64,000 nucleotides of DNA from an uncultured virus (IMG/VR IMGVR_UViG_3300042880_000230) (lineage: Duplodnaviria; Heunggongvirae; Uroviricota; Caudoviricetes), in IMG/VR virus record IMGVR_UViG_3300042880_000230; one strand, 5' to 3'. Shown here piece by piece: positions 1 through 64,000 of the stretch. Each line of letters opens with the position of its first letter. Position 1 is the first letter of the stretch. The notes beneath the pieces were generated by a model. The model worked only from the letters and a program-made list of their open reading frames with translations. It did no database searches and was not told the origin of the DNA. A program made the position numbers and the translations under genes.

Positions 1-409
1 GCTCGCCGCAGTCGTGCGGAAAAACCCGGAGGGCGGGAGTTGCCGGACGCCAGTTAGCGCGACAACCTCCAAGGTTTACCGTGTTCCAGTGCGGTGCCTT
101 AGCTAGTGTCTTGAAGAGGAAGTCGTGAAGCTGGCGGGAGTTGACGGGCACCGCATCGTCTTCCAGCACTAGCACACCTTCCGCATCCTCTGCCGCGGCC
201 ATAGCGATAGCCCTTCGGTGCGATGCCGCGCATGCTAGGTCGCAGAGCGCCACCCTCTGCGGTCCTTGAATGTTAGGGCTGATCTGTACTCCAGGGATGA
301 ACTCCAAGTCGAAGATTGCAGCTAGACCGCTAGCATCCCAGGCTTCGTCAAGGGCCTTGCGTCGATCAGCACGGTTAGGGAGGCTGATACAGAAAGCCTT
401 CAGCTTCAT
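1..409 (-). CDS. Glycosyltransferase family 25-like protein (partial, runs off the window)
   Basis: Hand translation from ATG at 409 (ATGA overlap with the upstream ORF): MKLKAFCISLPNRADRRKAL...CAASHRRAI...VLVLEDDA, typical GT25 motifs. Confidence 0.8.
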   Translation of the reverse strand, partial: MKLKAFCISLPNRADRRKALDEAWDASGLAAIFDLEFIPGVQISPNIQGPQRVALCDLACAASHRRAIAMAAAEDAEGVLVLEDDAVPVNSRQLHDFLFKTLAKAPHWNTVNLGGCRANWRPATPALRVFPHDCGE

Positions 410-1068
410 GGCAGCCAGTACGACGTTGCTGCCTGGGCGATAACAATTTCGAGATAACCGTTGACCGGGGCAGCGGTTGTGCGGTCGTACACAGGACCGT
501 CATCCATCGCCTTTACATGCAGGAACGACCCTGGGCCTGACACACCCTGGACAGTATCATAGCACCAAGTACCTAGCCTATTGTAGTAGGCGGGTTGCGG
601 CGCACCCTCCAAGCCTACGCACGCCCCCGGCAGCAGGCGCAAAGCGGTATTCAAATTCAGAGGCTCTGTTAGAGCGCCGCTAGTGATCTGCCACGCCAGC
701 ACATACGGCGTTCGATTGTACATCGCCAGCATCACAGGCGGGCGTGCCGCGCCTACAATCGTTTCGCCATCAGGGTCTAGCCCGGATAGGTTCCAGCCGC
801 CGTAGCACACCCAGTACCTGTGAGGATTTGTTGCGCTAGTAGTGAGCGGGTTTAGAGAAATCGTCAGCATGTTTCTCGACGTATCCAAGGCACCTGCCTG
901 GCAGTTGAGCGGCCAGAATTTGCCGCTAGCTACCCTGACTGTTCCTGGAAAGTTAGAAGGCTGCTTGCCTCCCGGCTCCGTCGAAATAGTGTAGGTGCCT
1001 GCGGCGCTAGGAATTGCGGGCGCTACGGTAACACCTGCGGCAATGCGGAAAAACGGCTGTAGATTCAT
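406..1068 (-). CDS. Hypothetical protein, possibly virion-associated
   Basis: 220 aa ORF with 4-nt overlaps to both neighbours in the head operon. Confidence 0.6.
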   Translation of the reverse strand: MNLQPFFRIAAGVTVAPAIPSAAGTYTISTEPGGKQPSNFPGTVRVASGKFWPLNCQAGALDTSRNMLTISLNPLTTSATNPHRYWVCYGGWNLSGLDPDGETIVGAARPPVMLAMYNRTPYVLAWQITSGALTEPLNLNTALRLLPGACVGLEGAPQPAYYNRLGTWCYDTVQGVSGPGSFLHVKAMDDGPVYDRTTAAPVNGYLEIVIAQAATSYWLP

Positions 1069-1865
1069 TGAGAAATGCGTGTTAGGGCTGCAAGGTCGAG
1101 GCTGCGTGCCTGGATGATAGCGTCAGGGTTGGCAGGCACTGCTACCAGACTGATCTCAAAGAGATAGGCTTTGCTGATCGTTCGACCGTCAGGCTCGTAG
1201 ACCCAGATTCCGCCGATAGATAGCGTCCGCAGAGACTTCTCCATGAGAGCGAACCTGGCATGCTTCATGTGCGGCGAGTTAGAAACCTGGCCTTGCACAA
1301 ACAAGCCGCGATCATCTTCCCTGACAATCGTGTAGTGTCCGGCGATGTTCTCCACCGACATCCGGTGGTCGATGAGCATCACCGGGTTGGCCATAAAATC
1401 ACGGATAGTAGAGCGGAACGCACCGACTTGGACGTTGTCACCCTGGCGGTCAGACGGTGTGATGTGCGCCCAGGTGCTAGCGTAACCTGCAAAGGTAACG
1501 TCCTGGTAGTCTACTACCTGCCCGGTCTTGTCGTCTTTGACCGCAACACCCTTCGCGTCCGTATCCAGGCACTGCCTGCGATTAGCTAGCTCGACGCGGC
1601 GGGACTCATGCGGAGTGTCTGTAATAGCCAGGGCGCAGGCATCTACCTCAATCTCGCAGCCTGTGACCGCAATCTTTCCGTCGATAGGAAGCCCGATGTT
1701 CACTAGCGCTTTGCCGTCTGCTACAGAGGCGACCACTCCTACTAGCTTTGTCTGCCCCGACATAAAGGAGACCGACCTGCCGACGCGCTCGTCAGCCGCA
1801 GGCGCTGCCTTGGGTTGGGGAGGTTTGACAGCCTTAGAGCTGACTGCGAAAACTTTGATAGCCAT
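1065..1865 (-). CDS. HK97-family prohead protease with N-terminal extension
   Basis: FAGYAST, DRQGD, MLIDH, DDRGLFV, LSIG, EISLVAVPANPDA motifs. Confidence 0.92.
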   Translation of the reverse strand: MAIKVFAVSSKAVKPPQPKAAPAADERVGRSVSFMSGQTKLVGVVASVADGKALVNIGLPIDGKIAVTGCEIEVDACALAITDTPHESRRVELANRRQCLDTDAKGVAVKDDKTGQVVDYQDVTFAGYASTWAHITPSDRQGDNVQVGAFRSTIRDFMANPVMLIDHRMSVENIAGHYTIVREDDRGLFVQGQVSNSPHMKHARFALMEKSLRTLSIGGIWVYEPDGRTISKAYLFEISLVAVPANPDAIIQARSLDLAALTRISQ

Positions 1866-1896
1866 TCCGCGACTGTGTACCCGCCGGGACGCTTTG

Positions 1897-2283
1897 TCAA
1901 TATGTGGAGGCGTCAGGAACTTCTAAAGGATAGAAAGAGCCTTCGATTCCACGGGCTAGCTCCTTCACCGCCTCTTCCGGCGTTGGGATATTTGCAAGGC
2001 TTGCACCTGCCCACTGTCTGCGAGCTAGCGCTAGCAGCACGGGGTACTGCTGCGCGGTTATGGAGTTAGGGAATGAGAGCGTGTCTAGCCAGTCCTGTTC
2101 TCCCCAGTTAATCTGCACCTCCTTGCGGATGTTCTGTAGGTCCAGCCTAAGGCTTCCGGTAGTGTACAGCACACACACGATGCCCGCATTCAGCCCGGAC
2201 CATTTCCCGTCTAGCTCCATGGTGCCTAGGTCTGTGCGAACGAGGAGGTTTCCGTAACTCGGCGAGGCGGCTAGGATTTTCAT
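1897..2283 (-). CDS. Hypothetical protein; candidate immunity partner of the MuF toxin
   Basis: 128 aa ORF overlapping the MuF fusion stop by 4 nt. Confidence 0.5.
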   Translation of the reverse strand: MKILAASPSYGNLLVRTDLGTMELDGKWSGLNAGIVCVLYTTGSLRLDLQNIRKEVQINWGEQDWLDTLSFPNSITAQQYPVLLALARRQWAGASLANIPTPEEAVKELARGIEGSFYPLEVPDASTY

Positions 2284-5207: not shown

Positions 5208-5210
5208 GGA

Positions 5211-6515
5211 TCAGGCGTTAGGGTCTGACTGGCCGGAAGACGGGTCCATAAGCGATCCGCCAGACATGCCTGACAGTTCCAGCGGCACGCGGTTGTTAGC
5301 GGCGTAGTGGGCGTCGAGGAGCGGGTCTTCGCTGCGTGATAGACCTACCTGCTCACGCAGTTCGTTCAGCGACATAGCGCCTAGCTCCACTAGCGGACGG
5401 AAGTCTTTCACCACCTGCTCAATGTCGAGCAGCCCTGACATGTTGAACTTTACGCGCAGGTCGGGATTGAAGGATTGCGCTAGCCCGCCTGCCCCGTTGA
5501 GCTTGCCCGCGATAAGTGCTAGCATAGGGGCGCAGGTGTAGCGCCTGAAATTCATATCTTCGACCCGCGCCGTAGCGTAGTTGCTAGCAGCAGACAATCC
5601 GGCAACAGATAGCGGGACGCCGTGCGCAGCGAAAACCTGCTCAATAGCCCACCGCTCCTTCTCAATCGACTGCATCTCCTGGTGCGTCATGCCTAGCCGA
5701 GTGAACGCCCAGTCTCCTGTAAGGAAGGCCACCTTGCCTGCGTTAGAGCGTCCGGCGTACTCCGCATTGAACCTAGCCTTGAACGCCCGCCACTGATCCT
5801 CGTCCTCGTAGGACTCGCCTTTACGCGACAGGATACCTGACGGCTGCGCACCGTTAGACAGGAACTGCTCTTCCAGCGCTCCCCGATTGATGTAGGCGTT
5901 GAACAGGGAACTGCTAGCCTCTACGTCTCCAAGGCCGAGAACAAAGTTGCTAGGATGCGGACGACGGAAGTGGATGATCTCTTCCGGGAAATACGTTATC
6001 TCGCTCCCGTTCACATTGTACTTGTACTCCTTGATCTTCGTTACCTTGTCAGGCACGATCTTCATGTTAGCGGTCAGCAGCGGGTAGAGCGCCTTCGGCT
6101 GGCCGCGCCCCGACATCTCGTCCTTGAGCCAATACGCATTGCCCGTCACCTTCAGATTGAACGCCGTGTGGTAGACTAGCTCTTCCCACGAATCGTATGG
6201 GTTGGGCATAGCTAGAAGCGCCCCAAGCGGGTTGCCGTCCGGGACAGTCTTCTTGCTAGCACTAACGATAGACAGTTCTGAAGAAGAGACGACGTTAGAC
6301 GTTAGGTCCGAGGCGCGGAACGTAGCCCACACTCTTCCGGTGCTTGCTCCGATGTAGCTCTCGTAATCTGTTAGCTTGGTTATCGCTACGCCCGTCCGCT
6401 GCTCAATGAACTCGCGGGCCTTAGTGTCTAGCTGGAGCAGGTGCGACATAGCGCGTTCCCGCTCTTCGTTTTCACGGATTCGCGCAGCGTCTTTCTTTCG
6501 GTTCCAGAATGCCAT
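5211..6515 (-). CDS. Portal protein, HK97 family
   Basis: PNPY, GNAYW, EIIHFR, NGAQPSGIL, NAGK, GVP, NELRE motifs. Confidence 0.95.
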   Translation of the reverse strand: MAFWNRKKDAARIRENEERERAMSHLLQLDTKAREFIEQRTGVAITKLTDYESYIGASTGRVWATFRASDLTSNVVSSSELSIVSASKKTVPDGNPLGALLAMPNPYDSWEELVYHTAFNLKVTGNAYWLKDEMSGRGQPKALYPLLTANMKIVPDKVTKIKEYKYNVNGSEITYFPEEIIHFRRPHPSNFVLGLGDVEASSSLFNAYINRGALEEQFLSNGAQPSGILSRKGESYEDEDQWRAFKARFNAEYAGRSNAGKVAFLTGDWAFTRLGMTHQEMQSIEKERWAIEQVFAAHGVPLSVAGLSAASNYATARVEDMNFRRYTCAPMLALIAGKLNGAGGLAQSFNPDLRVKFNMSGLLDIEQVVKDFRPLVELGAMSLNELREQVGLSRSEDPLLDAHYAANNRVPLELSGMSGGSLMDPSSGQSDPNA

Positions 6516-6518
6516 AGG

Positions 6519-8101: not shown

Positions 8102-9268
8102 TTAGGCGGCGATCACTTCCGGCTTGAACGGGCGGGCCAGCACCGTCTGCTTGACGCCCCGGAACTCGCTGTGGTCCTTGACGGTCGCTTTGAATTTGAC
8201 GGTGTCGCCGATCTTTCCGGGAAGGTTGTTGGCGACTAGCGTATTTCCGTCGGCGGTCAGTAGGATGACCTTCTCGGTATAGCCGAACTGGGTGGAGTAT
8301 CCGAAACGGTTAGTCACCACCCCTTCAAACACCGCCCGCTCGCCGACGGTGCCGACGTAGTTGCTAGCCGCTGCCTGCTTCGCTTTCACCGCCTGACTCC
8401 GCGCCCGGTTGACGGCGGCGATGAGGGAGACGCCTACCCCGAAGGTCTTGCTAGTGACGTACCCTGACCGAACCACGGTGAGGAGGTTGTGGATGTACTC
8501 GCCCCCGTCGTCGGGGATTGCCAGGGCTTCGGCGATGAAGGCGTCGGCGGTCTCCTCCTCCTCTTCGGTGGGGTGGATGCCTGCGTGGAGAAGCTCCCAC
8601 GCCCCGTCCTTCGTGCTGCGAATGCCGCAATCTTCTGCGCGAGAGCGGGAAACGTACTGCCCGCCGTCCGCCTTAAGAGCTAGGGCGACCGCCTTCGTCA
8701 GGCTGTAGGCGTCGACCGCGCCGCCCTCATGCGTCCGCTCCTCGCGGTCCCCGTAGTCCCGCAGGAACTCGGAGAGGGTGGCGAAATGCTCGAACACCTT
8801 CGCCAGGTTCTCCGCCGTGTCGGCGGTGGTGAAGTGGCGGAGGCAGGACCGCCCGACCTGCTTCACCTGCCCCGCTTCGGAGCGGAGGAGGAAGGTGTCG
8901 GAGCGGCGGCGGTTCGTGGCGCAATGCTCGCACTCAATCGGAGCGGAGCGGAACCGGGCGGGCACCTCGCCCCCGGTTCCAAGAATGATGTTGCCGCCGT
9001 CGTGCGGGGTGAGGCGGGCGAGGAAGCTCCACCCCTTTACCATCACTTTCTCCTCCGCCCCCGTGATTTCCAGGTCGTGGACTTCGGCGGTAACGGTGCG
9101 GGAGGTGCTATGGTAGCCGTCCCCCGTGTAGGTGTGGACCTTCACCTGCTCCATGCGGGAGGCAGTGATGGTATAGGCGGGGATGGCGACCCCCAGCCGC
9201 TTCGCCTTCCGCTGGAGGGTAGCGAAGGCGGCGTCGAAGGCGGAAATGGAGCGGACGGTGATTTTCAT
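8102..9268 (-). CDS. Hypothetical early protein with Zn-ribbon and C-terminal OB-fold-like region
   Basis: CEHC..RRR..VGRSC; C-terminal KATVKDHSEFRGVKQT; directly behind a promoter cassette. Confidence 0.75.
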   Translation of the reverse strand: MKITVRSISAFDAAFATLQRKAKRLGVAIPAYTITASRMEQVKVHTYTGDGYHSTSRTVTAEVHDLEITGAEEKVMVKGWSFLARLTPHDGGNIILGTGGEVPARFRSAPIECEHCATNRRRSDTFLLRSEAGQVKQVGRSCLRHFTTADTAENLAKVFEHFATLSEFLRDYGDREERTHEGGAVDAYSLTKAVALALKADGGQYVSRSRAEDCGIRSTKDGAWELLHAGIHPTEEEEETADAFIAEALAIPDDGGEYIHNLLTVVRSGYVTSKTFGVGVSLIAAVNRARSQAVKAKQAAASNYVGTVGERAVFEGVVTNRFGYSTQFGYTEKVILLTADGNTLVANNLPGKIGDTVKFKATVKDHSEFRGVKQTVLARPFKPEVIAA

Positions 9269-9843: not shown

Positions 9844-10074
9844 TTAGTAGCCTGTGACCGGGTACAGGTAGCCGCGCCCGCCGCACTGGTGCGGCCCGAT
9901 ATTCAGGCCCCAGTACTCCGCAAACGCGGCAGCGGCGTGGTGGTGTGCGTTGTCTGCCTCGTAGGCGTAAGGGAACGTTTTCTGCCCCCAGTCTGTGCTT
10001 GTGACGCGGATTTTCGCGCCCTTAGTGTGTGTTGCGGCGATGTGCTTTGTGCGGAGGAAGCCGGGCTTTTTCAT
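9844..10074 (-). CDS. Hypothetical protein (start at MKKPG)
   Basis: Downstream of promoter copy 2; the longer ORF start lies inside the promoter. Confidence 0.6.
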   Translation of the reverse strand: MKKPGFLRTKHIAATHTKGAKIRVTSTDWGQKTFPYAYEADNAHHHAAAAFAEYWGLNIGPHQCGGRGYLYPVTGY

Positions 10075-10120
10075 GTGGTTTTTTCTGCGGTGGTTCGTTG
10101 TTGCGTCGTGCAACTGCTCC

Positions 10121-12445: not shown

Positions 12446-12452
12446 GACGGAG

Positions 12453-13346
12453 TCAGCTAGTTTTTACACCCGCAAGCGACAAGAACTCGGCACGCGCCGC
12501 AGCCTCTTCAAAGATACCGTAGACAGACGAGGTCACCATGCGGCCATCTTTGCGTACACCGCGCAGGCATTGGCAGGTATGCTTGGCAGAGACCACTACC
12601 ATGATCCCGGCAGGGTCTAGCTTTCTGAGCGCGTCTGCGATTTGTTGCGTCAGGCGCTCCTGCACCTGCGGCCTGCGAGCATAGCCGTCTGCTAGCCTTG
12701 CGAGCTTGGATAGCCCTACCACGCGCTTTCGCGCTAGCGATGGAACATAGCCGATATGGCATTCCCCAGAGAACGGGAGTAGGTGATGCTCGCACAGAGA
12801 CACGAACGGTATTCCTGCTGAAATAATCATTCCACCATACTGAACTGGTGCGGTGTCGTCTAGGCTGAAATCCTTCTCCAGATGGATCGTCGGGTCTTCT
12901 TTAAGCCCCGATGTAAATTCTAGCATAGCCTTGATGAAGCGTGCGGGCGTCTCTAGCAAACCTTCTCGGTCAGGGTTTTCGCCTAGCCTTTGAAGCAGTC
13001 TACGAACTCCGTCCTCTGCTCCACTAGGTTCGCCAGCCTCCCATGGAAACTGAATCCACTCTGTTGGGCACTTGCGTTGAGATTTGTCTAGTAGGCAGAT
13101 GAACGGCTTGCCGGGATAGCGGCTCGCGTACTCACTCCGAGTCTTGCCAGAATCCACGAGGTCGTCCACTACAAAGTCAGCCTCTTCTGGAGAATCCGTT
13201 AGTGCTAGAGAGGGGTACTGCGCAGAGATAGCCTGCGCCGCGTGACACCCTCCTCTTGGAATACCGTAGAGCTTCGATTCGCGCGGGATCTCTTTACCTG
13301 CGACAGCGGCTAGTCGAGAAATGTCATTCCATGTTAGTATTTTCAT
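12453..13346 (-). CDS. folE: Purine phosphoribosyltransferase-like domain fused to GTP cyclohydrolase I
   Basis: N-term GIPRGG, VVDDLVDSGKT, WIQFPWE; C-term REGLLETPAR, SLCEHHLLPF, GLSKLAR, QVQERLT, HTC..RG. Confidence 0.92.
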   Translation of the reverse strand: MKILTWNDISRLAAVAGKEIPRESKLYGIPRGGCHAAQAISAQYPSLALTDSPEEADFVVDDLVDSGKTRSEYASRYPGKPFICLLDKSQRKCPTEWIQFPWEAGEPSGAEDGVRRLLQRLGENPDREGLLETPARFIKAMLEFTSGLKEDPTIHLEKDFSLDDTAPVQYGGMIISAGIPFVSLCEHHLLPFSGECHIGYVPSLARKRVVGLSKLARLADGYARRPQVQERLTQQIADALRKLDPAGIMVVVSAKHTCQCLRGVRKDGRMVTSSVYGIFEEAAARAEFLSLAGVKTS

Positions 13347-13355: not shown

Positions 13356-14075
13356 TTATGCGGGTTGAACTCCTCCAAGAGGTACGTTAGGCGCGGAGCG
13401 TGCGTCAAGGGCGTCCACTTTATAGAGCTTGTGAAGCTGCCAGCCTGCCCGGAAAAGACCTCCACGCGCTAGCACTTCTCGGCTGATTGCGTTAAGCACC
13501 TTCTCGTCCTCTCTGCGAGACCACTCAGGGTGAAGCCATATCGCCTGAAGGTTTGCAAGCCGTGCAATAGGCTTTCCTACAGTATCTTCAACCTGAGATA
13601 CCCAGTACCCTACAGACTGCTCGCTTTCAACAATGATCTTGATCTCGTTGGCGTAAGCTAGCATAGCGGCGGCTGGCGGTTCCGCTAGTTTCGGCGATAC
13701 CGTTATCCAGTCGAAGAGTTGGGAATTTCTAAGATACGCTCCGCAAGTCTCGACATGCAGCAGAATGCTTTCCTGACGCAGCCGCGAAGACAAGTAAGCT
13801 AGTGCGTTCTCTTTCTGTATCAAAGGCTCTCCTCCTGTTAGCACTACAAACTCAGAACGTGACTCGACTGCCTCTTTAACTAGCTGATCGACGGTAACTA
13901 GCAAAGACCGCTTCGGCGCAAACGCAGGATGCCATGTACCTGCGGAATCGCAGAAGGGGCACTTAACAGGACAGCCGTAAGTGCGAATGAAGAATGCGCG
14001 TCTCCCTATGTGGATACCCTCTCCTTGGAAGGCGTGGAAACGCTCATGGACAGGCAGGGTGATTTCAGCAGTCAT
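13356..14075 (-). CDS. queE: 7-carboxy-7-deazaguanine synthase (radical SAM)
   Basis: FQGEG, CPVKCPFCDS, TGGEP, TVSPK, QLHK. Confidence 0.93.
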   Translation of the reverse strand: MTAEITLPVHERFHAFQGEGIHIGRRAFFIRTYGCPVKCPFCDSAGTWHPAFAPKRSLLVTVDQLVKEAVESRSEFVVLTGGEPLIQKENALAYLSSRLRQESILLHVETCGAYLRNSQLFDWITVSPKLAEPPAAAMLAYANEIKIIVESEQSVGYWVSQVEDTVGKPIARLANLQAIWLHPEWSRREDEKVLNAISREVLARGGLFRAGWQLHKLYKVDALDARSAPNVPLGGVQPA

Positions 14076-14509
14076 GGTGTAGCGGTGGCGCTGTTTTTCG
14101 AGTCTTCCACTACCTCCACACGGGCCACGCTAACGCGCCCGCCTGTATGCGCTTGGATGACGGCGTTCACCTCCTGCAAGAGGAACGCCGCTAGCCCTTC
14201 ACTGGAGCAGTCGGGCACCTCAAAGATAGAGGCGATAAGGTCCGGCGATGTTAGCGTCTCTCGGAGAAGCGGTAGTTCCGGGTCGTCGTAGTTAAGGACT
14301 AGCGTATGATCGAACCGCTCCGCGATCCATGCTTTCAGAAACCCTAGCTTTCCGAAGTCGATAACAAAGCCGCAGGCGTCGAGAGTAGTTGCCGCGAAGG
14401 TAAACACGAAGCTCCAGTTGTGGCCGTGAATCCATGCGCAATGCCCGTCGTGGCTGGGCTGGCGGTGCGCAAAAGGTAGGTCGGTGTAGGCTTTGGTGCA
14501 GGTTATCAT
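14072..14509 (-). CDS. queD: 6-carboxytetrahydropterin synthase
   Basis: AHR..HDGHCAWIHGHNW, VIDFG, FDH, SSEGLA; start placed at the ATGA overlap. Confidence 0.92.
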   Translation of the reverse strand: MITCTKAYTDLPFAHRQPSHDGHCAWIHGHNWSFVFTFAATTLDACGFVIDFGKLGFLKAWIAERFDHTLVLNYDDPELPLLRETLTSPDLIASIFEVPDCSSEGLAAFLLQEVNAVIQAHTGGRVSVARVEVVEDSKNSATATP

Positions 14510-15765
14510 AGCTCGTAGGTTAGAGGGTCTGGGACTGATGCGCGAGCGAACGCTGTTCGGCGCATGAAGCATGGGCCGCACTTTCCGCAGTGCGACGAGC
14601 GGTTAGCGTAGCAAGACCAGGTCAGGTCTAGGGGCGCTTGTACGCGATGCCCCTCTGAAACAATCTCATGTTTCATTAGATGCCCTACAGGGTCCAGCAG
14701 CGTCATACTAGCGCCGTCGTGGACTACGTTAGCCATGGCTGTGTTAAGAATCCGAATCAGCTCCATCTCGTTATCAGGGTACGCTCCGCTCTCTTCTAGG
14801 TTTCCTCCATACGCTACGGCGTCAAACCCTCGGGACTCGGCCCACCCTACGGCTAGCGCCAGCATCTGAAAATTCCGAGCCGGAACCCACTCGTGCGCGT
14901 ATTCCGCGCCGTCTGCGCCTTCGGCCAGGTCTTTATCGGAGTCAGAAGTTAGGGTGCTGCCTGCTACGCTGGAGCGTGGCATCTCTAGCACAGAGTAGTC
15001 GCAGCGCATTCTTTGCGCGATGCTTCGCACGGCGTCCAACTCCGGAGCGGAAGCCCGGCATCCGTAGCTGAAATGCAGCAGATGGATGTCCTTGCCTTGC
15101 GAGCGCAGAATAGCCGCCGCTACAGTGGAGTCTAGCCCGCCCGAAGCAATGACGCAAACCTTAGACACAGGCTGGATGCGTCGTACCGACTCCTTAGCAA
15201 GCAGAGCGCGGACAGAATACGGCTCCAGCTTAACAGGAGCGACGGAGTCTTCTCCGACGGAATCCAGCACCGACTGCACATCGGAAGCCAGGGACGCATA
15301 GACTAGCCCCACCCCTCGGACTCGGCAGTAGTAGAGCGGCTTGTAGTTAGCCGCCAGGTAAAGCTCGTTCGGAGTGGCGACGGCTAGGGCGTATGATCCT
15401 CGAACCTTCAAAAGCGATGCGGCCAACAGGCTCGCGTTCGAGGTGTCCAATACTCGTGGAAGAACTTCGGAGTCTATCTCTCCGTCTAAACCGCCTAGCT
15501 CTTTATCGTTAGCAATGGTCCCGTTATGAAAGACGTAGCTCATCCCGTCCGAGGTATAGGGTTGCAACCTGCCCGTGGCTGCTTCTGTCGTCGGTGTTGC
15601 TCGGTTCCATCCTAGCGTGGCGGGTCGCCCTGCGATCCTCGCGGAACGTGTAGACTGCGCATCGCGTCCCCTCGCAGACGAAGCCCGAGCAAGCACGTCA
15701 AAGAGATGCCCTCTCTGGGTTTGAGTATGCTCGTCATTCCATACAATGCCGTAGATAGCGCACAT
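14506..15765 (-). CDS. queC: Gat-QueC fusion (Ntn glutamine amidotransferase + preQ0 synthase)
   Basis: MCAIYG, HNGTI, DSE (Ntn-GAT); SGGLDS, VPARN, YPD, TWSCY, CGKCGPC (QueC). Confidence 0.93.
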   Translation of the reverse strand: MCAIYGIVWNDEHTQTQRGHLFDVLARASSARGRDAQSTRSARIAGRPATLGWNRATPTTEAATGRLQPYTSDGMSYVFHNGTIANDKELGGLDGEIDSEVLPRVLDTSNASLLAASLLKVRGSYALAVATPNELYLAANYKPLYYCRVRGVGLVYASLASDVQSVLDSVGEDSVAPVKLEPYSVRALLAKESVRRIQPVSKVCVIASGGLDSTVAAAILRSQGKDIHLLHFSYGCRASAPELDAVRSIAQRMRCDYSVLEMPRSSVAGSTLTSDSDKDLAEGADGAEYAHEWVPARNFQMLALAVGWAESRGFDAVAYGGNLEESGAYPDNEMELIRILNTAMANVVHDGASMTLLDPVGHLMKHEIVSEGHRVQAPLDLTWSCYANRSSHCGKCGPCFMRRTAFARASVPDPLTYEL

Positions 15766-15770: not shown

Positions 15771-16604
15771 TTAGTATTGAAGTGCTAGCGATTCAACAGC
15801 CTCGCGGATCATGTTGATCTGAACTCCCGTAGACGCGGCTAGGTATAGTTTGGTGCCTAGAAAGGATTGCGTGTCCTGGGCGCGTAGAATTGCCGCCGCC
15901 GTAGATGCTCGGAACGAGACGGAAGCGCCACCGCGCCACGCGCTCTCCGTCCTTAGCCGCGCTCTGTCCGGGGGTGAGATTCCGTGCCGCGCTAGAAGGC
16001 TGTCCAGCATAACACCTCCGCGAATAACATCGTCCCGCTGAAACTCTTTCAGTACGCCCTTGCCCGTGTACAAGCGCATCTTGCCGCTTCTAGGGGCGAA
16101 GTTCCAGCTAGAGGAGTCGGCGCTGTAGGGCCTGAATGCCGTTATGAAGTCGCGGTTAGTAAAGCCTAGCCAATGCACCTTCCTGCCTCGGTTCTGGTTA
16201 GTAAACCACTTCAAGTATTCGCGGTTGCCGGGGGTACTTACAATCCCACCGAACAGCAGGTAATCCGTCGTCTCGTAAAACCGATCCGCATCGCTAAAAG
16301 GAGCGCCCCGAGTAAATACAGGCATCACTCTCAACCCGCGCTCTCGCATCGTATCGTAATTCCGCATCGTGGCTTGGTGATCGCCTATAACGTCTAGCTG
16401 AACAGCGTGCTGAAAGGGCACTGCGGGGTCTGCTAGAAAGTCGCAGTATTCGGCAAGGTTGATTGGGTGCCCGCTCTTCCATGCGGTAAACGCCCCGGAG
16501 TCTAGCATGAGATGCACATCGCAGACTTGCCGCAGAGAGGCTAGCGCCCTAACCATAGCCTTGCTCATGTATGGATAGGCCACGAGTATGTGGAGCGATC
16601 TCAT
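15771..16604 (-). CDS. dpdA: DpdA-like DNA guanine transglycosylase
   Basis: LDSGAF, LDVIGD, PVF, HWLG, SADSSSW (TGT-fold motifs) inside a que cluster. Confidence 0.85.
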   Translation of the reverse strand: MRSLHILVAYPYMSKAMVRALASLRQVCDVHLMLDSGAFTAWKSGHPINLAEYCDFLADPAVPFQHAVQLDVIGDHQATMRNYDTMRERGLRVMPVFTRGAPFSDADRFYETTDYLLFGGIVSTPGNREYLKWFTNQNRGRKVHWLGFTNRDFITAFRPYSADSSSWNFAPRSGKMRLYTGKGVLKEFQRDDVIRGGVMLDSLLARHGISPPDRARLRTESAWRGGASVSFRASTAAAILRAQDTQSFLGTKLYLAASTGVQINMIREAVESLALQY

Positions 16605-17278
16605 TTCATCGCTACCTCGGGGAATTTCTTAAGTAGCGTCTTGAGCGCATCCTTTACCGCCTGCAAGTCCGCTAGAGGCACTGACAAGGAAATAGACTCG
16701 TGCGTTGCGGACGCTACGTTAGCTACTCTTTCTTGTGCCTTCGCCTGATCTTCCGATGGCCAGTCGCCTATACCGGGGCCGTTTGCTAGCATGTCTATCT
16801 CGTCTTGTGTGAAGCCGCTCAGTTCTTTCCACTCTGCATCCATGTCTGAGCAAATCTGCCCTAATCCCTCTAAATCCCACTCAGCCGACCATTTGTTAGC
16901 AGCTAGCAAGGCTGCGGATTCTTTGCTTTCACTCCAAGAAACTTCCCGATAGGAAAACCTAACGCCTGACTCCAGTTCTGCAAAGCCGTAGGCAACTGTG
17001 CCCGAGGCGTCTGGCTCGGAAAGTTCATGCGTGCGCGTAATGGCGGGATTGCCGCTAGTCTTAAAGGCTTCAACCCGTTTGTGCCCGCCGACGAGACGCC
17101 CGGTGGATAGGTTGAACAGCACGCCCGACAAGTCGCCGAACTCTGCTAGCGATTTAGCGAATGCGTCTGACTGCTTGTCGTCTTTCCACGGCAGGCGCGG
17201 ATTCTTAGCGTTAGGTGTAAGCGCCGCTGTACTGTCGGGCGGTTGCGCAGTCTTTGCGCGTTTGCGTGCGGATGCCAT
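16601..17278 (-). CDS. ParB-like N-terminal domain protein
   Basis: LTPNAKNPR, SLAEFG, LVGGHKR, AANK..EWD; typical neighbour of modification and terminase genes. Confidence 0.75.
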   Translation of the reverse strand: MASARKRAKTAQPPDSTAALTPNAKNPRLPWKDDKQSDAFAKSLAEFGDLSGVLFNLSTGRLVGGHKRVEAFKTSGNPAITRTHELSEPDASGTVAYGFAELESGVRFSYREVSWSESKESAALLAANKWSAEWDLEGLGQICSDMDAEWKELSGFTQDEIDMLANGPGIGDWPSEDQAKAQERVANVASATHESISLSVPLADLQAVKDALKTLLKKFPEVAMK

Positions 17279-23934: not shown

Positions 23935-24018
23935 GCCGGGGTGGTGGAATCGGTAGACACGCCAGATTTAGGATCTGGTTCCCGTTAGGGAATAGGGGTT
24001 CGAGTCCCCTCCCCGGTA
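23935..24018 (+). tRNA. tRNA-Leu (anticodon TAG), class II, CCA not encoded
   Basis: GCCGGGG/CCCCGGT acceptor, D-arm GTGGAATCGGTAGACAC, CCAGA-TTTAGGA-TCTGG anticodon arm (TAG at 23969-23971), long variable arm, AGGGG-TTCGAGT-CCCCT T-arm, discriminator A. Confidence 0.95.
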
Positions 24019-24034
24019 CTCCCCGCCGCAAACG

Positions 24035-30606: not shown

Positions 30607-31185
30607 TTACCTGTTAGTCCATGCTGCGACTTCTTCGTCGGTCACTTCTGACTGTGGCCGTGGCAGGCTGCGACCGGAGTTCTGCCAGTGCCAGTCTCTG
30701 TTAGTGTTGATTTCGGCCACGATCCGCTCGCGGACGGCGGCGGCGTCCTTAGCGGCCAACTCGCCGATTGCCGCTTTCGCGGCTTCGATGTCGGCGGTGG
30801 ATTTCGCCGTGGACTGAAACCTGCCGAGGCTCCAGTCGAGGAAGAATCCGCCCCCGGTGGCGGCAATCTTCACCTCCACCAGCCATTCGGCTGGAAATGC
30901 CGCTTCAATGCTGCGGCAGGCGGCGATTTCCTGCGCCGTGATTGGCGCGACCCCGAAGGGCTTGGCGAGGCGGCGAGCCTCGCGGGCAAATCCTTCCGCC
31001 TTCGCCTCCCATGTCCGGCGGTCGGACAAGTCCGATGTCGCCGCCGCTTTCTCCGCCCATTTGGCGGCTGACGCCTCCGCCGCCGCAATCTCTGCGGCGC
31101 GGTCGGCAATGCGCTCGGCCCGTGCGGCGAGGCGGGCGGTTTCGGGGGTGTCGGCGAGGGCGTTTCCGTGGAGGTCTGTGTTCAT
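30607..31185 (-). CDS. Hypothetical protein
   Basis: First gene after promoter copy 5. Confidence 0.7.
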   Translation of the reverse strand: MNTDLHGNALADTPETARLAARAERIADRAAEIAAAEASAAKWAEKAAATSDLSDRRTWEAKAEGFAREARRLAKPFGVAPITAQEIAACRSIEAAFPAEWLVEVKIAATGGGFFLDWSLGRFQSTAKSTADIEAAKAAIGELAAKDAAAVRERIVAEINTNRDWHWQNSGRSLPRPQSEVTDEEVAAWTNR

Positions 31186-35706: not shown

Positions 35707-36795
35707 TCAGTCTTGGAGGCTGTACCACTCGTTGATGATGTGGATGAAGCTCGCTCCCAGGGTGGACGGGTCCACGTTAGGGTCTGCCAGGCCCTGCTTC
35801 TCCGCCGCCAATCGCAGCGCTTCGGTGACGGTGTCCGCTTGGTCGTTGTGGACCGTGAAGGAGAAGCTAACCATTTCGTGGGAGGCGGTCGAGTTGCCGT
35901 GGAGCTTCACGCCGTCCTTGACCATGCGCCGTTTGATCTCGTCGGTAAGTTGCGCCCCGGTGAGCTTCCTAGCCAAGTCGAGCGCTTCTTCGACGTTCGC
36001 GCCGCTGTCGAGGTAGCTAACAAGATCCTTGAGCTTGCTCCAGCCGATCCCTTTCAGCTTCGCCTCCGTAATCCCGAGGCGGGTGACGGTGCCGTAGATG
36101 CCGATCAGATATTGCGCCTTGCGGTACTTCATCCCAAGTCGGCGCTCGACGTACTTGGCGAAACCTTTCTGCCCTTCGGCGAAGGCTTCCTCGCCGACAC
36201 TAACAACTCCTGGGTCGGCGTGAGCGTCGGTCGCCTGAATCACGGACAGCACGCCGCCGAGCGTCAGGTAGGTCTGCTCGACGGTGCTGTGGAGGTTGTC
36301 GGCGGCAGTGATGGCGTTGCCGTTAGCGGACGCCAGCGCATCCTTGACGGATGGGAGTTGCTTTACAGGCTTGGCAGGCTCTACAGGCTCTGCCGTCTTC
36401 TTTTTGCTAGCCTTCGCTGGCGCTTCCTCCTCTTCCTCCGCTTCCTCGTTGTCTACCACCACCATCGGACCTTCGTCCTCCTCTTCCTCCTCTTCGATTA
36501 CCGCAGCCTTCGGCTTTTTCTTGCTAGCCGCTTTCGCGGCAGGAGCGGCGGTCTCGAACGGTTCAATCTCGGCGGGGGCGGCGGAGTCTACCGCCTTTTT
36601 CGACTTTGCTGTTTTGGCTAGGTCGTACACCCCATGCTCCGGCCACCAGGCCAGAATGAAGTAGGTTTCCCCTTCTTCTAGATCGCCGGACTCCCCGGCG
36701 GGGTAGCCCTTGAAGGTGACTTGGGTGCCGACTTCCAGCACGACAGGGGCGGCGGACTTGATGTTTTTCTTGTTAGCAACAGTGGACTTGCTCAT
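35707..36795 (-). CDS. Hypothetical protein with acidic/Lys-Ala linker
   Basis: 362 aa ORF with its own promoter and terminator. Confidence 0.75.
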   Translation of the reverse strand: MSKSTVANKKNIKSAAPVVLEVGTQVTFKGYPAGESGDLEEGETYFILAWWPEHGVYDLAKTAKSKKAVDSAAPAEIEPFETAAPAAKAASKKKPKAAVIEEEEEEDEGPMVVVDNEEAEEEEEAPAKASKKKTAEPVEPAKPVKQLPSVKDALASANGNAITAADNLHSTVEQTYLTLGGVLSVIQATDAHADPGVVSVGEEAFAEGQKGFAKYVERRLGMKYRKAQYLIGIYGTVTRLGITEAKLKGIGWSKLKDLVSYLDSGANVEEALDLARKLTGAQLTDEIKRRMVKDGVKLHGNSTASHEMVSFSFTVHNDQADTVTEALRLAAEKQGLADPNVDPSTLGASFIHIINEWYSLQD

Positions 36796-56960: not shown

Positions 56961-57634
56961 ATCCAAGTCTGGCGGTCGTTGGTTTTTCCGCTAATGTTAG
57001 AGCTTCCTGCTTCCTGCCCGCAAATCCAGCGGCGAGGGCAGTAGACCTTCCAGTCGCGCCGTTGGTGGGCTAGCTCTAGCTGGTGATCGACGTGCTTGTT
57101 AGTGCCTGCGTAGTCAGGGGCGTGGCAGATGTGCCGGTAGAATTGATGGAAAGTCCTAGCATGAAGCGCATAGGCGTGCGTCCGGTTGACTGACCTTCCT
57201 ACGATAACGTGCGGCGACTCGGTCTCTTCAAAGTCCTGACGGTGCTGCCCGCCAAGGTATATCTGCCCCCAGTCGTTAGGCACGTTGTCCATGAATCGGT
57301 TGAGGTCTTCTAGCGCATTGTCCAGAAAGAACACGTCGTCTTCCAGCACCAGGATGCTGCCTAGCGCTAGCTGATACCGCTCGTCTCTGATGTGAAGGGC
57401 ATCCTCTACAATTCTTTGGTGTGACCGCATGCAACCCCACGCGCCCGCGCCCGACTGCCAGCAGGCAGGGTGTGAAGTCCAGTCGCCTATCACTGCATTA
57501 ACTACCTCAAACCGATCCCAGTCCTTCACCATCCTGGACGACATGAGATGCTCTAGCACCTGTGTTCGCCTGTCCGGCCTATGAGCGCAATTGATGAGAT
57601 AGACTCTGTCGAACAACTCTGTTAGTGTCTTCAT
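56957..57634 (-). CDS. Glycosyltransferase family 25-like protein
   Basis: YLIN..RPDR, GAWGC..SH, LVLEDD, W..IYLG, THAY, Q..G.S.I. Confidence 0.85.
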   Translation of the reverse strand: MKTLTELFDRVYLINCAHRPDRRTQVLEHLMSSRMVKDWDRFEVVNAVIGDWTSHPACWQSGAGAWGCMRSHQRIVEDALHIRDERYQLALGSILVLEDDVFFLDNALEDLNRFMDNVPNDWGQIYLGGQHRQDFEETESPHVIVGRSVNRTHAYALHARTFHQFYRHICHAPDYAGTNKHVDHQLELAHQRRDWKVYCPRRWICGQEAGSSNISGKTNDRQTWI

Positions 57635-59297: not shown

Positions 59298-59301
59298 GGC
59301 G

Positions 59302-60075: not shown

Positions 60076-60082
60076 AATGTTA

Positions 60083-62464
60083 TCAGGTTGAAGTCACGCG
60101 GAGAACTGACGTATTGCTAGTATTTTTCGAGATGCGTTCAAGCTCGGAAAGGATAGCCCTGTCCAGAGTGCCGCCTGCGGATGCAGGAGACGTGCCGCCT
60201 AGCAGAGTATTAGTCTTTGCCGAGTTCTCGTTGATAGACTGCAAAGTCGTTAGCTGCTGGCGCTGAACTTCCGCAGGGTCTTGCTTGCCCGCAAAGAATC
60301 CGCCGCCACCGCCCATGCTCTGCAAAGAGTCCGCCACGCCTTGAAAGCTAGGCCCGTTCTTAGCTTTATCGGCACGGGCATTTACTAGCCGTTCTGCAAG
60401 CGATGCTGCTTCGATGTCGCTAACGCCTGTAGCTTCGATGATAGAACGCTTCTCGCGTAGCAGGTCGATCTCGCGCTGTATCCGGTCAGCCGCAGTAGTG
60501 TCGCCCGCAGCCTCGGCTTCTGCCGCTGCGATGCTGCGCATAATATCCTCCTTAGACTGCGCCTGCTTCTTTTCCTTGTCCATCTGCTCGGAACTTTTCA
60601 GAGCTTGGCTAGGGTTCCACTTGGTAGGGTCGAACTTGAAGAAAGATGATAGTCCGGCGGCTGGCCTGATGTCCTTCTGCGCATTCTTTGCCCACATCGC
60701 AGCCTCCGCGTTGCGCTTGTTCTCGTAGAAGATTCCACCGAGCGCATCCTTAAGAAGGTTAGCGTCTACAGCTAGCTCGGCGTAGTATGATTTGGTTTTA
60801 CCGCTGGCACCTTCAATGCCTTCGGCCCTCGTTCTCTCTAGCACTTTCTGGAATTGCTCAAGAGCCTCTGTGCTTTTACGCATTTCCTCTTCAGTCTTCG
60901 ATTCCAGAATAGTCTTGTTAATCGCAACGAACTGCTCGCGCAGGGCGCGGAGATTAACGACCGCACCTCCGTCGCTATTATTGCTCATTGCCGATATTGC
61001 AGAACCCATAAGACCTACCATTTGCGTAAGCCCGTCCACTGCGGATTTGATAGGACCGCCAGCCATAGACCCTATGCGAACCTGAAGGTCGTCTACGGCA
61101 TTGCCTAGCTTTTTCGCACTGCCTGCCGCAGTATCACCGATAGCTTGCTCAAACCTAGCGCCAGCGCCCGCTGCGCTTTCCATCTTAGCCTGCATAGCCC
61201 CGAAGCTGCTAGCGTTTGCGGCTAGGATAGAAGAGATGTCAAGGTTTTCCGCTCCGAAGAGTTTTACTAGCGTGCTTTGGTCAAGCCGCGCTAGCTTTTT
61301 CATGATGTCTTCAACCGAGTTTAAGCTAGGCGATAGCTCATACGCGGCCACGCCTGCGCTAGCCATAGCCTCTTCCGCGTCCTTGGTAGGCGCTACCAGC
61401 CTAGCAAATATTGCGCCTAGACCGCGACCAGCCATGCCGCCCCTGACACCGTTGTTTGCCAAGATTGCCAGTGCCGCCGACACTGTCTCAATCGGGATTT
61501 TCATCGCGGACGCAACAGGCGCAATGAACTTCATGGACTCACCCATGTCGTCGATGGAAGCAGGCGATGCGTTAGCGGCTGCCGTTAGCGTGTCGATAAT
61601 CCGTGTCGTGTCTTTTGCGCCTAGCTGAAACGCCGACATAGAGGCGACCATAATTTCGGCAGCACGGCCCATCTGAATTTCTCCCGCCGCCGCTAGGCGA
61701 AGCGTAGCTGTTAGCGAGCCAGCAGCCTGCTCGGCGCTCATACCTGCCGCTACTAGCTCCCGCAGTCCTCCCGCCTTTTCGATAGAGTTGAAGGCGTTAC
61801 TTCCTGACAGAGCGGCTTCCCTAAGAGTATTGAATGCGGCGGACGTTTTGTCGATCTCACCTACCGCAGCGACTCCAGCCATAGCCTGCTCAAAGTCCAT
61901 AGCGTCCTTGATCGTGTCCCGCATAACCGCGCCAGTCGCCGCAAGCACAGCCGCAGGAGCGGCGAATCTTCCTAGCATCGACAGATTTAGCATGCCGCCT
62001 CCACCCGCGCCGCCACCCGCGTCAGCGACGCTAGCGCTACCGCCGCTCATGACCGCAGTGCGGTGCCGAGACGTTACGCTCTGCTGCGAGCGCTTAGATA
62101 CGGAATTGATAGCAGTAGACGCTCTGTTAGCATTAGCGGCGACAAGGGCTAGAGAGGACGCCATCGTCGCCAGCACCTGCTCTATCCCTGCTAGCTTACT
62201 CGCGGACGAGGCTAGCTGACTTGCAGAGTTTGAGCTAGCCAGCAGCTTCTTGTCAAGATCCCCGGTCGCTGTAGCCATCGCGTTCATCCGCTTGACGATA
62301 GCTTCAGAAGGTAGGCTTTTTTCCAGCCGGGTGAACATCGACATGACCCGCGAAGTACGGCCCTCCAGCCTAGCCAATCCCATGTCGATCTGCTTCAACC
62401 CGGCCAAAGCATTGCTAGGGTCGGAGAGGAAGTCAATTCCTACATTGGATTGGGTAGTACTCAT
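60083..62464 (-). CDS. Tail tape measure protein (TP901-like core)
   Basis: FEQAMAGV.A, L.LAAAG, D.LT.AAN, L.ILANNG..G..AG; Ala-rich. Confidence 0.92.
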   Translation of the reverse strand: MSTTQSNVGIDFLSDPSNALAGLKQIDMGLARLEGRTSRVMSMFTRLEKSLPSEAIVKRMNAMATATGDLDKKLLASSNSASQLASSASKLAGIEQVLATMASSLALVAANANRASTAINSVSKRSQQSVTSRHRTAVMSGGSASVADAGGGAGGGGMLNLSMLGRFAAPAAVLAATGAVMRDTIKDAMDFEQAMAGVAAVGEIDKTSAAFNTLREAALSGSNAFNSIEKAGGLRELVAAGMSAEQAAGSLTATLRLAAAGEIQMGRAAEIMVASMSAFQLGAKDTTRIIDTLTAAANASPASIDDMGESMKFIAPVASAMKIPIETVSAALAILANNGVRGGMAGRGLGAIFARLVAPTKDAEEAMASAGVAAYELSPSLNSVEDIMKKLARLDQSTLVKLFGAENLDISSILAANASSFGAMQAKMESAAGAGARFEQAIGDTAAGSAKKLGNAVDDLQVRIGSMAGGPIKSAVDGLTQMVGLMGSAISAMSNNSDGGAVVNLRALREQFVAINKTILESKTEEEMRKSTEALEQFQKVLERTRAEGIEGASGKTKSYYAELAVDANLLKDALGGIFYENKRNAEAAMWAKNAQKDIRPAAGLSSFFKFDPTKWNPSQALKSSEQMDKEKKQAQSKEDIMRSIAAAEAEAAGDTTAADRIQREIDLLREKRSIIEATGVSDIEAASLAERLVNARADKAKNGPSFQGVADSLQSMGGGGGFFAGKQDPAEVQRQQLTTLQSINENSAKTNTLLGGTSPASAGGTLDRAILSELERISKNTSNTSVLRVTST

Positions 62465-62465
62465 G

Positions 62466-63142: not shown

Positions 63143-63672
63143 TCTTGTGGGGTGGTGGTGGGTAATTGTGTTTCCGGCGTATGCACTAGCCGTTCAAGTG
63201 CGGAGGGTACAGGCTCGGCAGTCGCAGGCTTCATCCCTCGGCGCAAAGCCGCGATGTGCTTGCGAGATCCTTCTGTTAGCCAGAGGTGCGTCTTGACTCC
63301 CTGCTGGTCGTGTACCGCCATAGGCACCACAGCCCGTTCTGACAGGTGCTTGCGTTCGATGTCTGCGAAGTTGATAATAGCGGCTAGCGCAAATGAGAGC
63401 GGGCAGACAGGGTTTTCCGCGACATAACGGAATGGGTCGCTAGACGCTACTAGCGCTTTCGATACGTCCACGATTCTCTCAGGATCGTGCGACTGGAAAA
63501 TGAAGATCGCCTGCCTGTGTCCGCTAGCGTACTGGACAAGTTTTGCAGGTCTTGCAAGTGGCACCCCCACAGAGAGGAGTGCGGCGGCTAGCACCCGGTC
63601 TTTGACCACATAGGTGTTGCGGTTCTGTAGGTCCACGCCTTTGGCGCGAATAGCGTTAGTGTCTCTGGCCAT
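63139..63672 (-). CDS. Hypothetical protein in the tail operon
   Basis: ORF from MARDT with 4-nt overlap. Confidence 0.6.
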   Translation of the reverse strand: MARDTNAIRAKGVDLQNRNTYVVKDRVLAAALLSVGVPLARPAKLVQYASGHRQAIFIFQSHDPERIVDVSKALVASSDPFRYVAENPVCPLSFALAAIINFADIERKHLSERAVVPMAVHDQQGVKTHLWLTEGSRKHIAALRRGMKPATAEPVPSALERLVHTPETQLPTTTPQE

Positions 63673-63680
63673 AAAAGTTA

Positions 63681-63701
63681 GCCGGGGAATTAGCACCCGG
63701 C
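63681..63701 (-). terminator. Hairpin after the putative tail tube gene
   Basis: GCCGGG...CCCGGC then TAACTTTT on the minus strand. Confidence 0.45.
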
Positions 63702-63722
63702 AGGGTTAGAACTCAGCCTGCG

Positions 63723-64000
63723 TTAGGCTCCGATAGCGTCCCAGCTCTTCAGCGAAACCACTGTCTGGATGTAGTCTTCATTGGAGAGGGTGACTTGGAT
63801 CTTTGTGATGTAGAGCGTGCCGACGATCAGTTCACCGGAGAACACGGCAGCGTTAGCGAGGACCACAGTATCGCCCACGTCGTCGTTACTAGTGCCCGGT
63901 GCGCCGTAGCCAGTGATTTCCACTTCGTTGCCGCGATTGTAGAAGGCCGCGTTGCACACCTCTCCGCATCCGTTACGGATTTCCTTCAGGTCGCTACTGA
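63723..64000 (-). CDS. Probable major tail protein, C-terminal part (partial)
   Basis: Frame open to the window edge; upstream of chaperone and tape measure; SNEDY motif. Confidence 0.5.
   Translation of the reverse strand, partial: SSDLKEIRNGCGEVCNAAFYNRGNEVEITGYGAPGTSNDDVGDTVVLANAAVFSGELIVGTLYITKIQVTLSNEDYIQTVVSLKSWDAIGA

Follow-up and report, generated by a model that had tools for sequence, protein, structure and literature searches.

The 64,000-nucleotide stretch of an uncultured tailed virus of the class Caudoviricetes analyzed here (IMG/VR record IMGVR_UViG_3300042880_000230; this whole stretch is called the window below) raises the question of why a phage with 58.4% G+C is filled with CTAG-containing words and at the same time carries a tRNA for the leucine codon CTA. 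CTAG is usually among the most depleted tetramers of bacterial genomes. A preliminary description of the window had counted nine CTAG in positions 61141-61440 and six in positions 1-600, and had postulated a DNA-level pressure on CTAG and on CTA followed by a purine. Both local counts are exact (against 1.09 and 2.17 expected), and the genome-wide excess of CTAG and GTTAG is real, stronger than had been stated, and persists after Markov correction. From the analysis described below we consider it moderately probable that selection at the level of the DNA duplex favours many well-spaced copies of the pentamer 5'-G(C/T)TAG-3' (complement CTARC) in this phage.

The enriched word and the synonymous choices that spell it

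GYTAG/CTARC is present in 904 copies in the 64 kb, about 3.9 times the expected number, and its density is even along the window (see Table 1 for the composition of this lattice). CTAG itself occurs 526 times against 232 in the zero-order expectation (2.27-fold; maximal-order Markov z = 4.5), GCTAGC 135 times against 19.7 expected, and CTAACA 119 times against 13. The minus strand, which carries 74 of the 82 non-overlapping open reading frames (ORFs; simple longest-ORF calls), is referred to as the coding strand. On this strand we found 1477 copies of CTA against 795 expected (Markov z = 22), with 479, 529 and 271 copies in the three codon phases and a further 198 in 7.4 kb of non-coding DNA. 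CTAA is present in 335 copies on the coding strand (1.78-fold) and in 81 copies on the plus strand. GTTAG on the plus strand, which corresponds to CTAAC on the coding strand, occurs 246 times against 55 expected, and GTTAG on the coding strand 54 times.

The unit of this enrichment is neither CTAG nor the NheI palindrome. CTAG lacking both the 5' G and the 3' C is depleted (57 copies against about 116, or 0.49-fold), and GCTAGC stays below the number predicted from its sub-words GCTAG and CTAGC (135 against 172.6, z = -6.7), so the unit is the pentamer GYTAG/CTARC. GCTAGC would then simply be two overlapping copies of this word. The full palindrome is not enriched beyond its sub-words, and the non-palindromic CTAAC/GTTAG is enriched as well. 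The flanking C is stricter for CTAAC than for CTAGC (73% versus 53%). The earlier proposal of a DNA-level pressure thus holds, being borne out in all frames, in both orientations and in non-coding DNA, while its choice of CTA-purine or CTAG as the unit has to be replaced by the pentamer.

To separate the word from codon usage, we used a permutation null in which synonymous codons were shuffled genome-wide, leaving all proteins and all codon counts unchanged, the high count of CTA among them. Under this null, CTAG was observed 460 times against 252 (z = 17.6) and junction-spanning CTA 530 times against 285 (z = 16.9). For the longer words we obtained 291 against 87 for GCTAG, 239 against 106 for CTAGC, 119 against 35 for GCTAGC, 185 against 75 for CTAAC (2.4-fold, z = 15), and 47 against 17 for GTTAG (2.7-fold), with CTAACA enriched 4.2-fold and its reverse complement TGTTAG 5.4-fold. 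In non-coding DNA, the enrichment reaches 4.2-fold for GCTAG and 4.7-fold for both CTAGC and CTAAC. The excess therefore extends over all codon phases, codon junctions and non-coding DNA, and is not confined to in-frame CTA. Despite the raw skew of 246 CTAAC to 54 GTTAG, the two orientations are enriched alike under the coding-aware null, which means that the raw strand skew mostly reflects coding constraint; such symmetry is expected for a word that is read on duplex DNA, and differs from the orientation bias of Chi- or KOPS-like signals.

At places where a synonymous choice can spell one of the four pentamers, the word is frequently taken: 762 of 2658 such slots carry it, and the highest slot classes are CTAAC in phase 1 (xCT-AAC; 59%) and CTAGC in phase 0 (57%). 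The codon choices follow the context accordingly. The alanine codon GCT accounts for 71% of the choices before AAC and 69% before AGC, versus 20% overall, and the serine codon AGC for 59% after NCT versus 26% otherwise. CTA makes up 37-77% of leucine codons within motif contexts and 5-14% outside of them. Altogether there are 480 CTA among 1578 leucine codons (30%), and 343 of these 480 lie inside a motif; since CTA is low outside motif contexts and high inside, its 30% share is a by-product of the word. Even dipeptide usage is shifted (Leu-Ala 1.31-fold, Leu-Thr 1.36-fold, Pro-Asn 1.65-fold). In the proposed mechanism, synonymous codons and codon junctions would be picked to spell the word, with leucine CTA before G or AC, alanine GCT before AGC or AAC, and stops in the form C-TAA-C.

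A translational or mRNA-level signal could in principle dictate the same codons, be it a CTA preference driven by the tRNA, a codon-pair bias, hidden off-frame stops, or a CUAAC leader. CTARC is indeed found no more than 25 nt upstream of the called start in 41 of 74 genes, where leaders are rich in C and A and Shine-Dalgarno sequences are rare; the stop-codon phase holds 21 copies of CTAAC (there are 32 TAA stops in all), and each of the three motif cores contains a stop triplet. However, sites spanning codon junctions are enriched as much as in-frame sites, and reverse complements equally. Among the off-frame stop triplets TAG is enriched 1.62-fold, while TAA (1.03-fold) and TGA (0.83-fold) are not, which rules out a general hidden-stop effect. 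The low share of CTA outside the motif also speaks against this explanation, and the genes in which translational selection is most to be expected drop CTA and keep the motif (see below). We regard a translational or mRNA signal as largely refuted and its probability as very small indeed.

Site spacing, related contigs and a probable cost of CTA codons

The sites repel each other at short distances. Compared with random placement, the ratio of site pairs is 0.37 at 1-10 bp, 0.45 at 11-20 bp and 0.71 at 21-30 bp, and it reaches about 0.9-1.0 from 31 bp on, while nine control words of similar abundance gave ratios of 0.64-1.50. The repulsion persists in a slot-aware simulation that places sites only where the proteins permit them (z = -5.9 at 11-20 bp), and it appears separately in in-frame sites (0.50) and in junction sites (0.36). 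Close to an existing site, the occupancy of slots drops to a roughly unenriched level. Such a drop is expected if the benefit saturates locally, as with a footprint, and is not expected from independent mutation.

Syntenic relatives of the window were found in three metagenome contigs (L012-L014) with 51-80% protein identity. They share the bias (CTAG 2.2-2.4-fold, CTAAC 4.5-5.4-fold), and the repulsion between sites was also observed in two of them (L012 and L014). A 20.3-kb codon alignment (68% nucleotide identity) contains 242 sites of the window, of which 104 occupy the same aligned position in the relative; third codon positions are identical in 58% of cases inside motifs and 46% outside. 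The density of the motif is thus kept in the relative while individual sites partly turn over. Local compensation for lost sites is weak (z = 2.8 at 11-20 bp and 0.9 at 1-10 bp), and we do not rely on it. Between the two closest contigs (L012 and L014) there are 56 substitutions in 6 kb, none of which makes or breaks a motif, with about 3.9 expected inside motifs (56 x 0.070); the sole mismatch inside a motif converts CTAGC to CTAAC. The same sequence as the window was found in contigs from four other public short-read runs (lake and freshwater) with three differences in 20 kb, so the bias is not an assembly artefact. None of these three differences falls in a motif, a number too small to be used.

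These data bear on a context-dependent mutation or repair bias, for example a reversed repair of the very-short-patch type or a polymerase bias, which would create GYTAG without any function and leave the tRNA to follow. Such a bias would be genome-wide and even, would act in non-coding DNA and could shift even dipeptide usage, all of which we observed, and GTTAG is one C-to-T step away from GCTAG. Yet independent mutation predicts neither the repulsion within about 25 bp nor the lack of motif-breaking changes among the 56 recent mismatches, and the stricter flanking C of CTAAC does not fit a simple decay of CTAGC. Searches of the window with Pfam, PHROG and further profiles revealed neither a Vsr-like gene nor one for a methyltransferase. 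A plain polymerase or repair bias had been among the causes offered earlier; site spacing and polymorphism argue against it, and we consider it unlikely. Taken together, frame independence, slot occupancy, spacing, the density kept in the relative and the polymorphism data point to selection on DNA and not to codon preference.

Among the sequences compared, the GYTAG bias is limited to the window's own clade. It is absent from nine more distant viral contigs found via the polymerase, from 12 metagenome contigs at no more than 49% identity, and from all 57 viral contigs that share a 23-base stretch of the tRNA, which are unrelated and have about 42% G+C. It is also absent from 80 of 80 bacterial loci of many phyla, with a median observed-to-expected ratio of 0.13 for GCTAG (maximum 1.56) and 0.125 for CTAG. 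One locus from a metagenome-assembled genome of Burkholderiales (L112) attracted attention by its undepleted CTAG (1.08) but showed no GTTAG or CTA signal. A scan of bacterial genomes with FolE returned matches of about 50% identity over many phyla and no host signal. In two distant polymerase relatives (L016 and L009), TA steps are concentrated in GTAC-type words (GTACG 2.2-2.4-fold), and the preferred TA context seems to be specific to each lineage.

The single tRNA of the window reads CTA, as had been noted before (both ARAGORN and Rfam identify it), and all called genes are encoded on the other strand. A simple scan for a tRNA promoter or terminator found no consensus sigma-70 promoter and no terminator; TTGCAA boxes are present upstream of the tRNA on its own strand. 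The minus strand carries eight copies of a conserved promoter element, each about 60 bp long and with TTGCAA boxes in pairs (TTGCAA-N16-TATTAA type). In total we counted 56 TTGCAA against 9.9 expected, and TTGCACGGCTTGCAAA variants are also present inside genes. In all four runs, loose contig ends are present at 36863 and 36894 and point to alternative junctions in one of the promoter repeats.

These promoters allowed us to define a priori a promoter-proximal group of six genes that start no more than 400 nt downstream of one of the eight cores. In this group, 8 of 72 in-frame CTA slots are used (11%), compared with 414 of 853 elsewhere (49%; Fisher p = 1.2e-10). In contrast, junction-spanning slots are used alike in the two sets (35 of 110 versus 297 of 1076, p = 0.37). 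Grouping the genes by third-position G+C gave the same split (p = 3.9e-5 for in-frame and 0.46 for junction slots). Since in-frame CTA is dropped and junction sites are kept, the pressure on DNA is uniform, with CTA avoided where translation presumably matters most or earliest; the promoter-proximal genes are probably early or highly expressed. This pattern supports, indirectly, the earlier idea that CTA carries a translational cost which tRNA-Leu(UAG) offsets. The tRNA would supply decoding capacity for the high use of CTA that the word brings with it, and genes directly behind the strong conserved promoters still avoid CTA. A phage tRNA that reads CTA also suggests a host poor in this codon.

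Table 1. Features of the window discussed in the text, with coordinates, strand and basis of assignment
Feature	Coordinates	Strand	Basis or remark
GYTAG/CTARC lattice	1..64000	both	604 GCTAG + 300 GTTAG, forming 769 distinct TA-centred sites, ~1 per 83 bp
tRNA-Leu, anticodon UAG (reads CUA)	23935..24019	+	ARAGORN; Rfam RF00005, 57.8 bits
Promoter cores (start positions)	55453, 36880, 34377, 31253, 22896, 21521, 10149, 9353	-	
Promoter-proximal gene avoiding CTA	8102..9268	-	3/18 high-occupancy slots used; 65% G+C
Promoter-proximal CTA-poor gene	30607..31185	-	2/12 slots used
Promoter-proximal CTA-poor gene	35707..36795	-	4/22 slots used
7-deazaguanine cluster FolE, QueE, QueD, Gat-QueC, DpdA-like, with adjoining ParB-like gene			Pfam and PHROGs
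GTP cyclohydrolase I (FolE), ~100-aa N-terminal extension	12453..13346	-	Pfam E = 1.4e-57; NCBIfam NF006826, 199 bits, above cut-off
QueE-like radical SAM enzyme	13356..14075	-	Pfam Radical_SAM; NCBIfam QueE models E ~1e-20, below cut-offs
QueD-like 6-carboxytetrahydropterin synthase	14072..14581	-	PHROG 2389, E = 2.7e-32; NCBIfam TIGR03367 below cut-off
Gat-QueC fusion (glutamine amidotransferase + QueC)	14506..15765	-	Pfam QueC E = 5.9e-49, and GATase_7
DpdA-like DNA guanine transglycosylase, 277 aa	15771..16604	-	PHROG 887, E = 3.9e-28
ParB/Srx-like protein adjoining dpdA	16601..17278	-	PHROG 620 and 498
DnaG-type primase (Zn-ribbon CHC2)	44151-45134		Pfam and PHROGs
Family A DNA polymerase, DnaB helicase, RecA, ligase, RNase H			Pfam and PHROGs
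Large terminase, portal, prohead protease, tape measure			Pfam and PHROGs
Family 25 glycosyltransferase and adjacent 471-aa protein; glucosyltransferase-like fragment at the window edge	55551-57634 and 2-409	-	471-aa protein: borderline FkbM methyltransferase, 22.0 bits vs cut-off 22.7

Palindrome removal and candidate readers of the word

A second property of the window is the nearly complete loss of six-base palindromes. Altogether, 59 of the 64 palindromes sum to 134 copies against 987 in the zero-order expectation, and 22 are absent; under the coding-aware permutation null, the 59 palindromes give 118 copies against 831. Of the 26 palindromes with at least 15 expected copies, 21 occur no more than twice, and GGCC is found at 0.35 of its expectation. 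Short palindromes are therefore far under expectation after correction for both composition and coding, as in restriction-site avoidance. The same purge is seen in the relatives L012-L014 (0.16-0.20) and, less strongly, in the more distant L016 (0.37). The exceptions are GCTAGC (two motif copies), AGCGCT (54% of copies overlap a motif), TAGCTA, TGCGCA (in this phage only), and TTGCAA (the -35-like box of the repeated promoter). We dropped a rule by which palindromes of the form T-W-G-C would be tolerated, as TTGCAA is explained by the promoter boxes and the enriched coding words do not include TTGC.

Other words are skewed as well. In coding DNA, thirteen non-palindromic hexamers with at least 15 expected copies occur no more than twice (for example GAGCAC, 0 against 20.8, as well as GGCCTC/GAGGCC, ATCGAG and ACCGGC/GCCGGT), and these are candidate targets of asymmetric restriction systems. 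GTCAGG is enriched 4.7-fold (56 against 12) in coding DNA.

Such skews could make the GYTAG excess passive, either because the purge leaves a set of "safe" words that includes those with CTAG or because the phage copies an unusual host signature. The scale of the palindrome purge and the thirteen depleted hexamers are in line with this, as is a viral contig with a related DpdA (L043) that is likewise purged of palindromes and has pentamers enriched 4-4.7-fold; the permutation null also forces deficits in alternatives such as CTGG. But a filler word should neither repel itself nor reach 4-5-fold enrichment in non-coding DNA and slot occupancies of up to 59%, and GCTAGC would not be depleted relative to its two pentamers. 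As for a host signature, none of the 80 bacterial loci is biased, and the CTA-reading tRNA suggests a host poor in CTA. We consider a passive origin of the word improbable.

If the word is selected on DNA, a protein presumably reads it, and the phage's own DpdA would be the favoured reader. The phage encodes DpdA together with a full preQ0 pathway; the preliminary description had mentioned a 7-deazaguanine system and dpdA. The AlphaFold model of the DpdA-like protein has a pLDDT (predicted local distance difference test) score of 95.3, and its best matches in the PDB are tRNA-guanine transglycosylases (E = 8.5e-5, TMq 0.48); at the thresholds used, the protein has no Pfam or NCBIfam match. DpdA would swap a G of the motif for a 7-deazaguanine, probably archaeosine (dG+) given the Gat-QueC fusion, which accompanies dG+ in phage 9g according to the available text of PMC10516641. 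The adjoining ParB-like protein has a GxxRxxA-type box (GHKRVEA) and lacks the DGQQR motif described for bacterial DpdB in the available part of PMC10164549, and is thus no obvious DpdB.

On this reading, GYTAG would be the recognition site of the clade's DpdA, and the genome would be written to be densely modifiable: with about half of all synonymous opportunities rewritten, it would carry a spaced lattice of deoxyarchaeosine-type bases, nearly all restriction palindromes beyond the cover of the modification would have been purged, and tRNA-Leu(UAG) would have been acquired so that the phage could afford this recoding. Several observations are compatible with it. The bacterial DpdA of Salmonella Montevideo requires a C after its target G, within CAGCTG (available text of PMC10164549), and 53% of the CTAG sites in the window have C next. 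The few surviving six-base palindromes are those containing TAGC or GCTA. A DpdA of 76% identity exists in public data, which would fit a biased relative carrying one. In four contigs with related DpdA proteins (L042, L043, L047 and L037), GATC and TCGA are kept or enriched 1.9-3.6-fold while other palindromes are purged. In several DpdA contigs it is precisely the palindromes with GA that survive; in L047 the GA-containing six-base palindromes number 35 against 34.6 expected, the others 7 against 106. This survival of GA palindromes matches the GA target published for some DpdA enzymes (phage CAjan GA/GGC and phage iggy GA, in the available texts of PMC7544227 and PMC10484667), and a host signature could also explain it.

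A number of results weigh against these proposals. All 25 other viral contigs that encode a related DpdA (33-45% identity) lack the bias. The targets given in the available texts of the DpdA papers (GA, GGC and the G inside CAGCTG) are unlike GYTAG. Residual palindromes are not clustered near motif sites except for the built-in overlap of AGCGCT and AGCT, and the idea of a protective umbrella around motif sites was rejected on that account. In phage Seurat, which is related to CAjan, GA-containing palindromes are not tolerated. Reading the DpdA target from the palindromes that survive is therefore not validated as a rule and serves only as a lead. The word skews of L043 demonstrate that strong skews can arise in such genomes without GYTAG. 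For the broader proposal of selection on DNA, the polymorphism test is small (56 sites only), and gene and start-codon calls are our own, taken simply as the longest ORFs. Weighing both sides, we offer DpdA as the reader of GYTAG tentatively, as a possibility rather than an expectation.

In a DpdA tree (computed with no support values), the window protein adjoins that of contig L028, which tolerates a different set of palindromes and keeps AGCT, TGCA and GCGC. Another DpdA homologue (P0089, 39% identity) has a source name of the freshwater picocyanobacterium Vulcanococcus. No other organism name was encountered in this DpdA group, and as a pointer to the host it is weak.

The reader may also be another protein: the DnaG-type primase with CTA-centred starts, or a DNA-binding or packaging protein that is abundant and covers about 25 bp. 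The word may also be a Chi-like signal that protects against host exonuclease. Firmicute DnaG primases initiate at 5'-CTA. The spacing of the sites fits a footprint, both strands are enriched, and in other phages the bias is not coupled to DpdA. The window encodes the primase and a DnaB helicase, and also several unassigned proteins that it has in common with the biased relative and not with the unbiased L016. On the other hand, a site density as given in Table 1 would be far above what priming or Chi needs, signals of the Chi type are expected to be oriented while GYTAG is not oriented beyond coding constraints, and the profile searches of the window yielded no candidate protein. We hold a reader other than DpdA to be rather unlikely, though worth keeping in view beside the preferred DpdA.

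No close cultured relative of the phage was found: nucleotide searches against phages gave zero matches, and when the proteins for polymerase, terminase, portal and DpdA were used as queries, only distant matches below 40% identity came up. The glycosyltransferase and FkbM-like genes (Table 1) may be surface-glycan genes or a second DNA-modification system, and an Atlas look-up of the family 25 glycosyltransferase protein returned viral clusters only. The DNA polymerase has 936 aa in the window, compared with 1205 aa in L012 (gene at 2962-6580) and at least 1370 aa in L013 (1466-5579); in L014 the gene lies at 9991-13075. The alignment of the window polymerase with these relatives breaks into two or three blocks, a pattern as would be expected for an intein or other insertions.

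Comparison with known systems

Several short words found in excess, among them Chi, uptake sequences and HIP1, have in each case pointed the way to a DNA transaction. The word described here contains CTAG, normally the rarest bacterial tetramer, and occurs in a phage that has 7-deazaguanine genes and has removed its palindromes nearly completely. With respect to restriction-site avoidance in phages, the window is similar in being almost free of six-base palindromes and low in GGCC, and it differs in having a CTAG-containing word family that is enriched 3-5-fold and spaced, something for which avoidance cannot account by itself. Our searches, which covered the open literature, turned up neither an account of a phage rich in CTAG nor one of enrichment for target sites.

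The tRNA invites comparison with compensatory phage tRNAs. Bailly-Bechet et al. reportedly found in 2007 that phage tRNAs match codons used more by the phage than by its host, and the single tRNA of the window likewise reads a codon that makes up 30% of the leucine codons. The difference is that the codon excess in the window is secondary to a DNA motif, and that a subset of genes still avoids CTA. The window thus offers a clear case from nature in which a constraint at the DNA level imposes a rare codon and a phage tRNA compensates, and in which DNA and translational forces are separable within one genome.

HIP1 (GCGATCGC) is an 8-bp highly iterated palindrome of cyanobacterial chromosomes, proposed to be kept via a DNA-modifying enzyme (PMC4390886). 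In the available text of this paper, which contains no mention of CTAG, it resembles the word in the window as a short word that is frequent in all frames, with roughly one copy or more in each kb. In contrast, the window word belongs to a phage and is a degenerate pentamer and no palindrome, and GCTAGC falls short of the number expected from its halves. WACTRTGAC, a nick-associated 9-mer of a Pseudomonas phage group, is present in about 13 copies per genome that are concentrated at one end (available text of PMC11780129). It is similarly a short motif enriched in a clade beyond sequence similarity and mostly located inside genes, whereas the window has about 900 copies that are evenly spread.

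The closest functional parallel that we considered is that of the sequence-specific DpdA systems (CAjan, iggy and Salmonella Montevideo), which, in the available texts, recognize short target motifs and resemble the window in their gene set of FolE, QueD, QueE, Gat-QueC and DpdA. They differ from it in that no published target found there resembles GYTAG, and we found none reported for which the genome is enriched in its own target. If a phage enzyme reads GYTAG, the word provides a directly testable target for a poorly characterized DpdA, and modification specificity would become inferable from genomes alone. If that enzyme is indeed the DpdA of this clade, it would have a new specificity, and the window would represent the first genome selected for the density of its modification targets, the mirror image of restriction-site avoidance.

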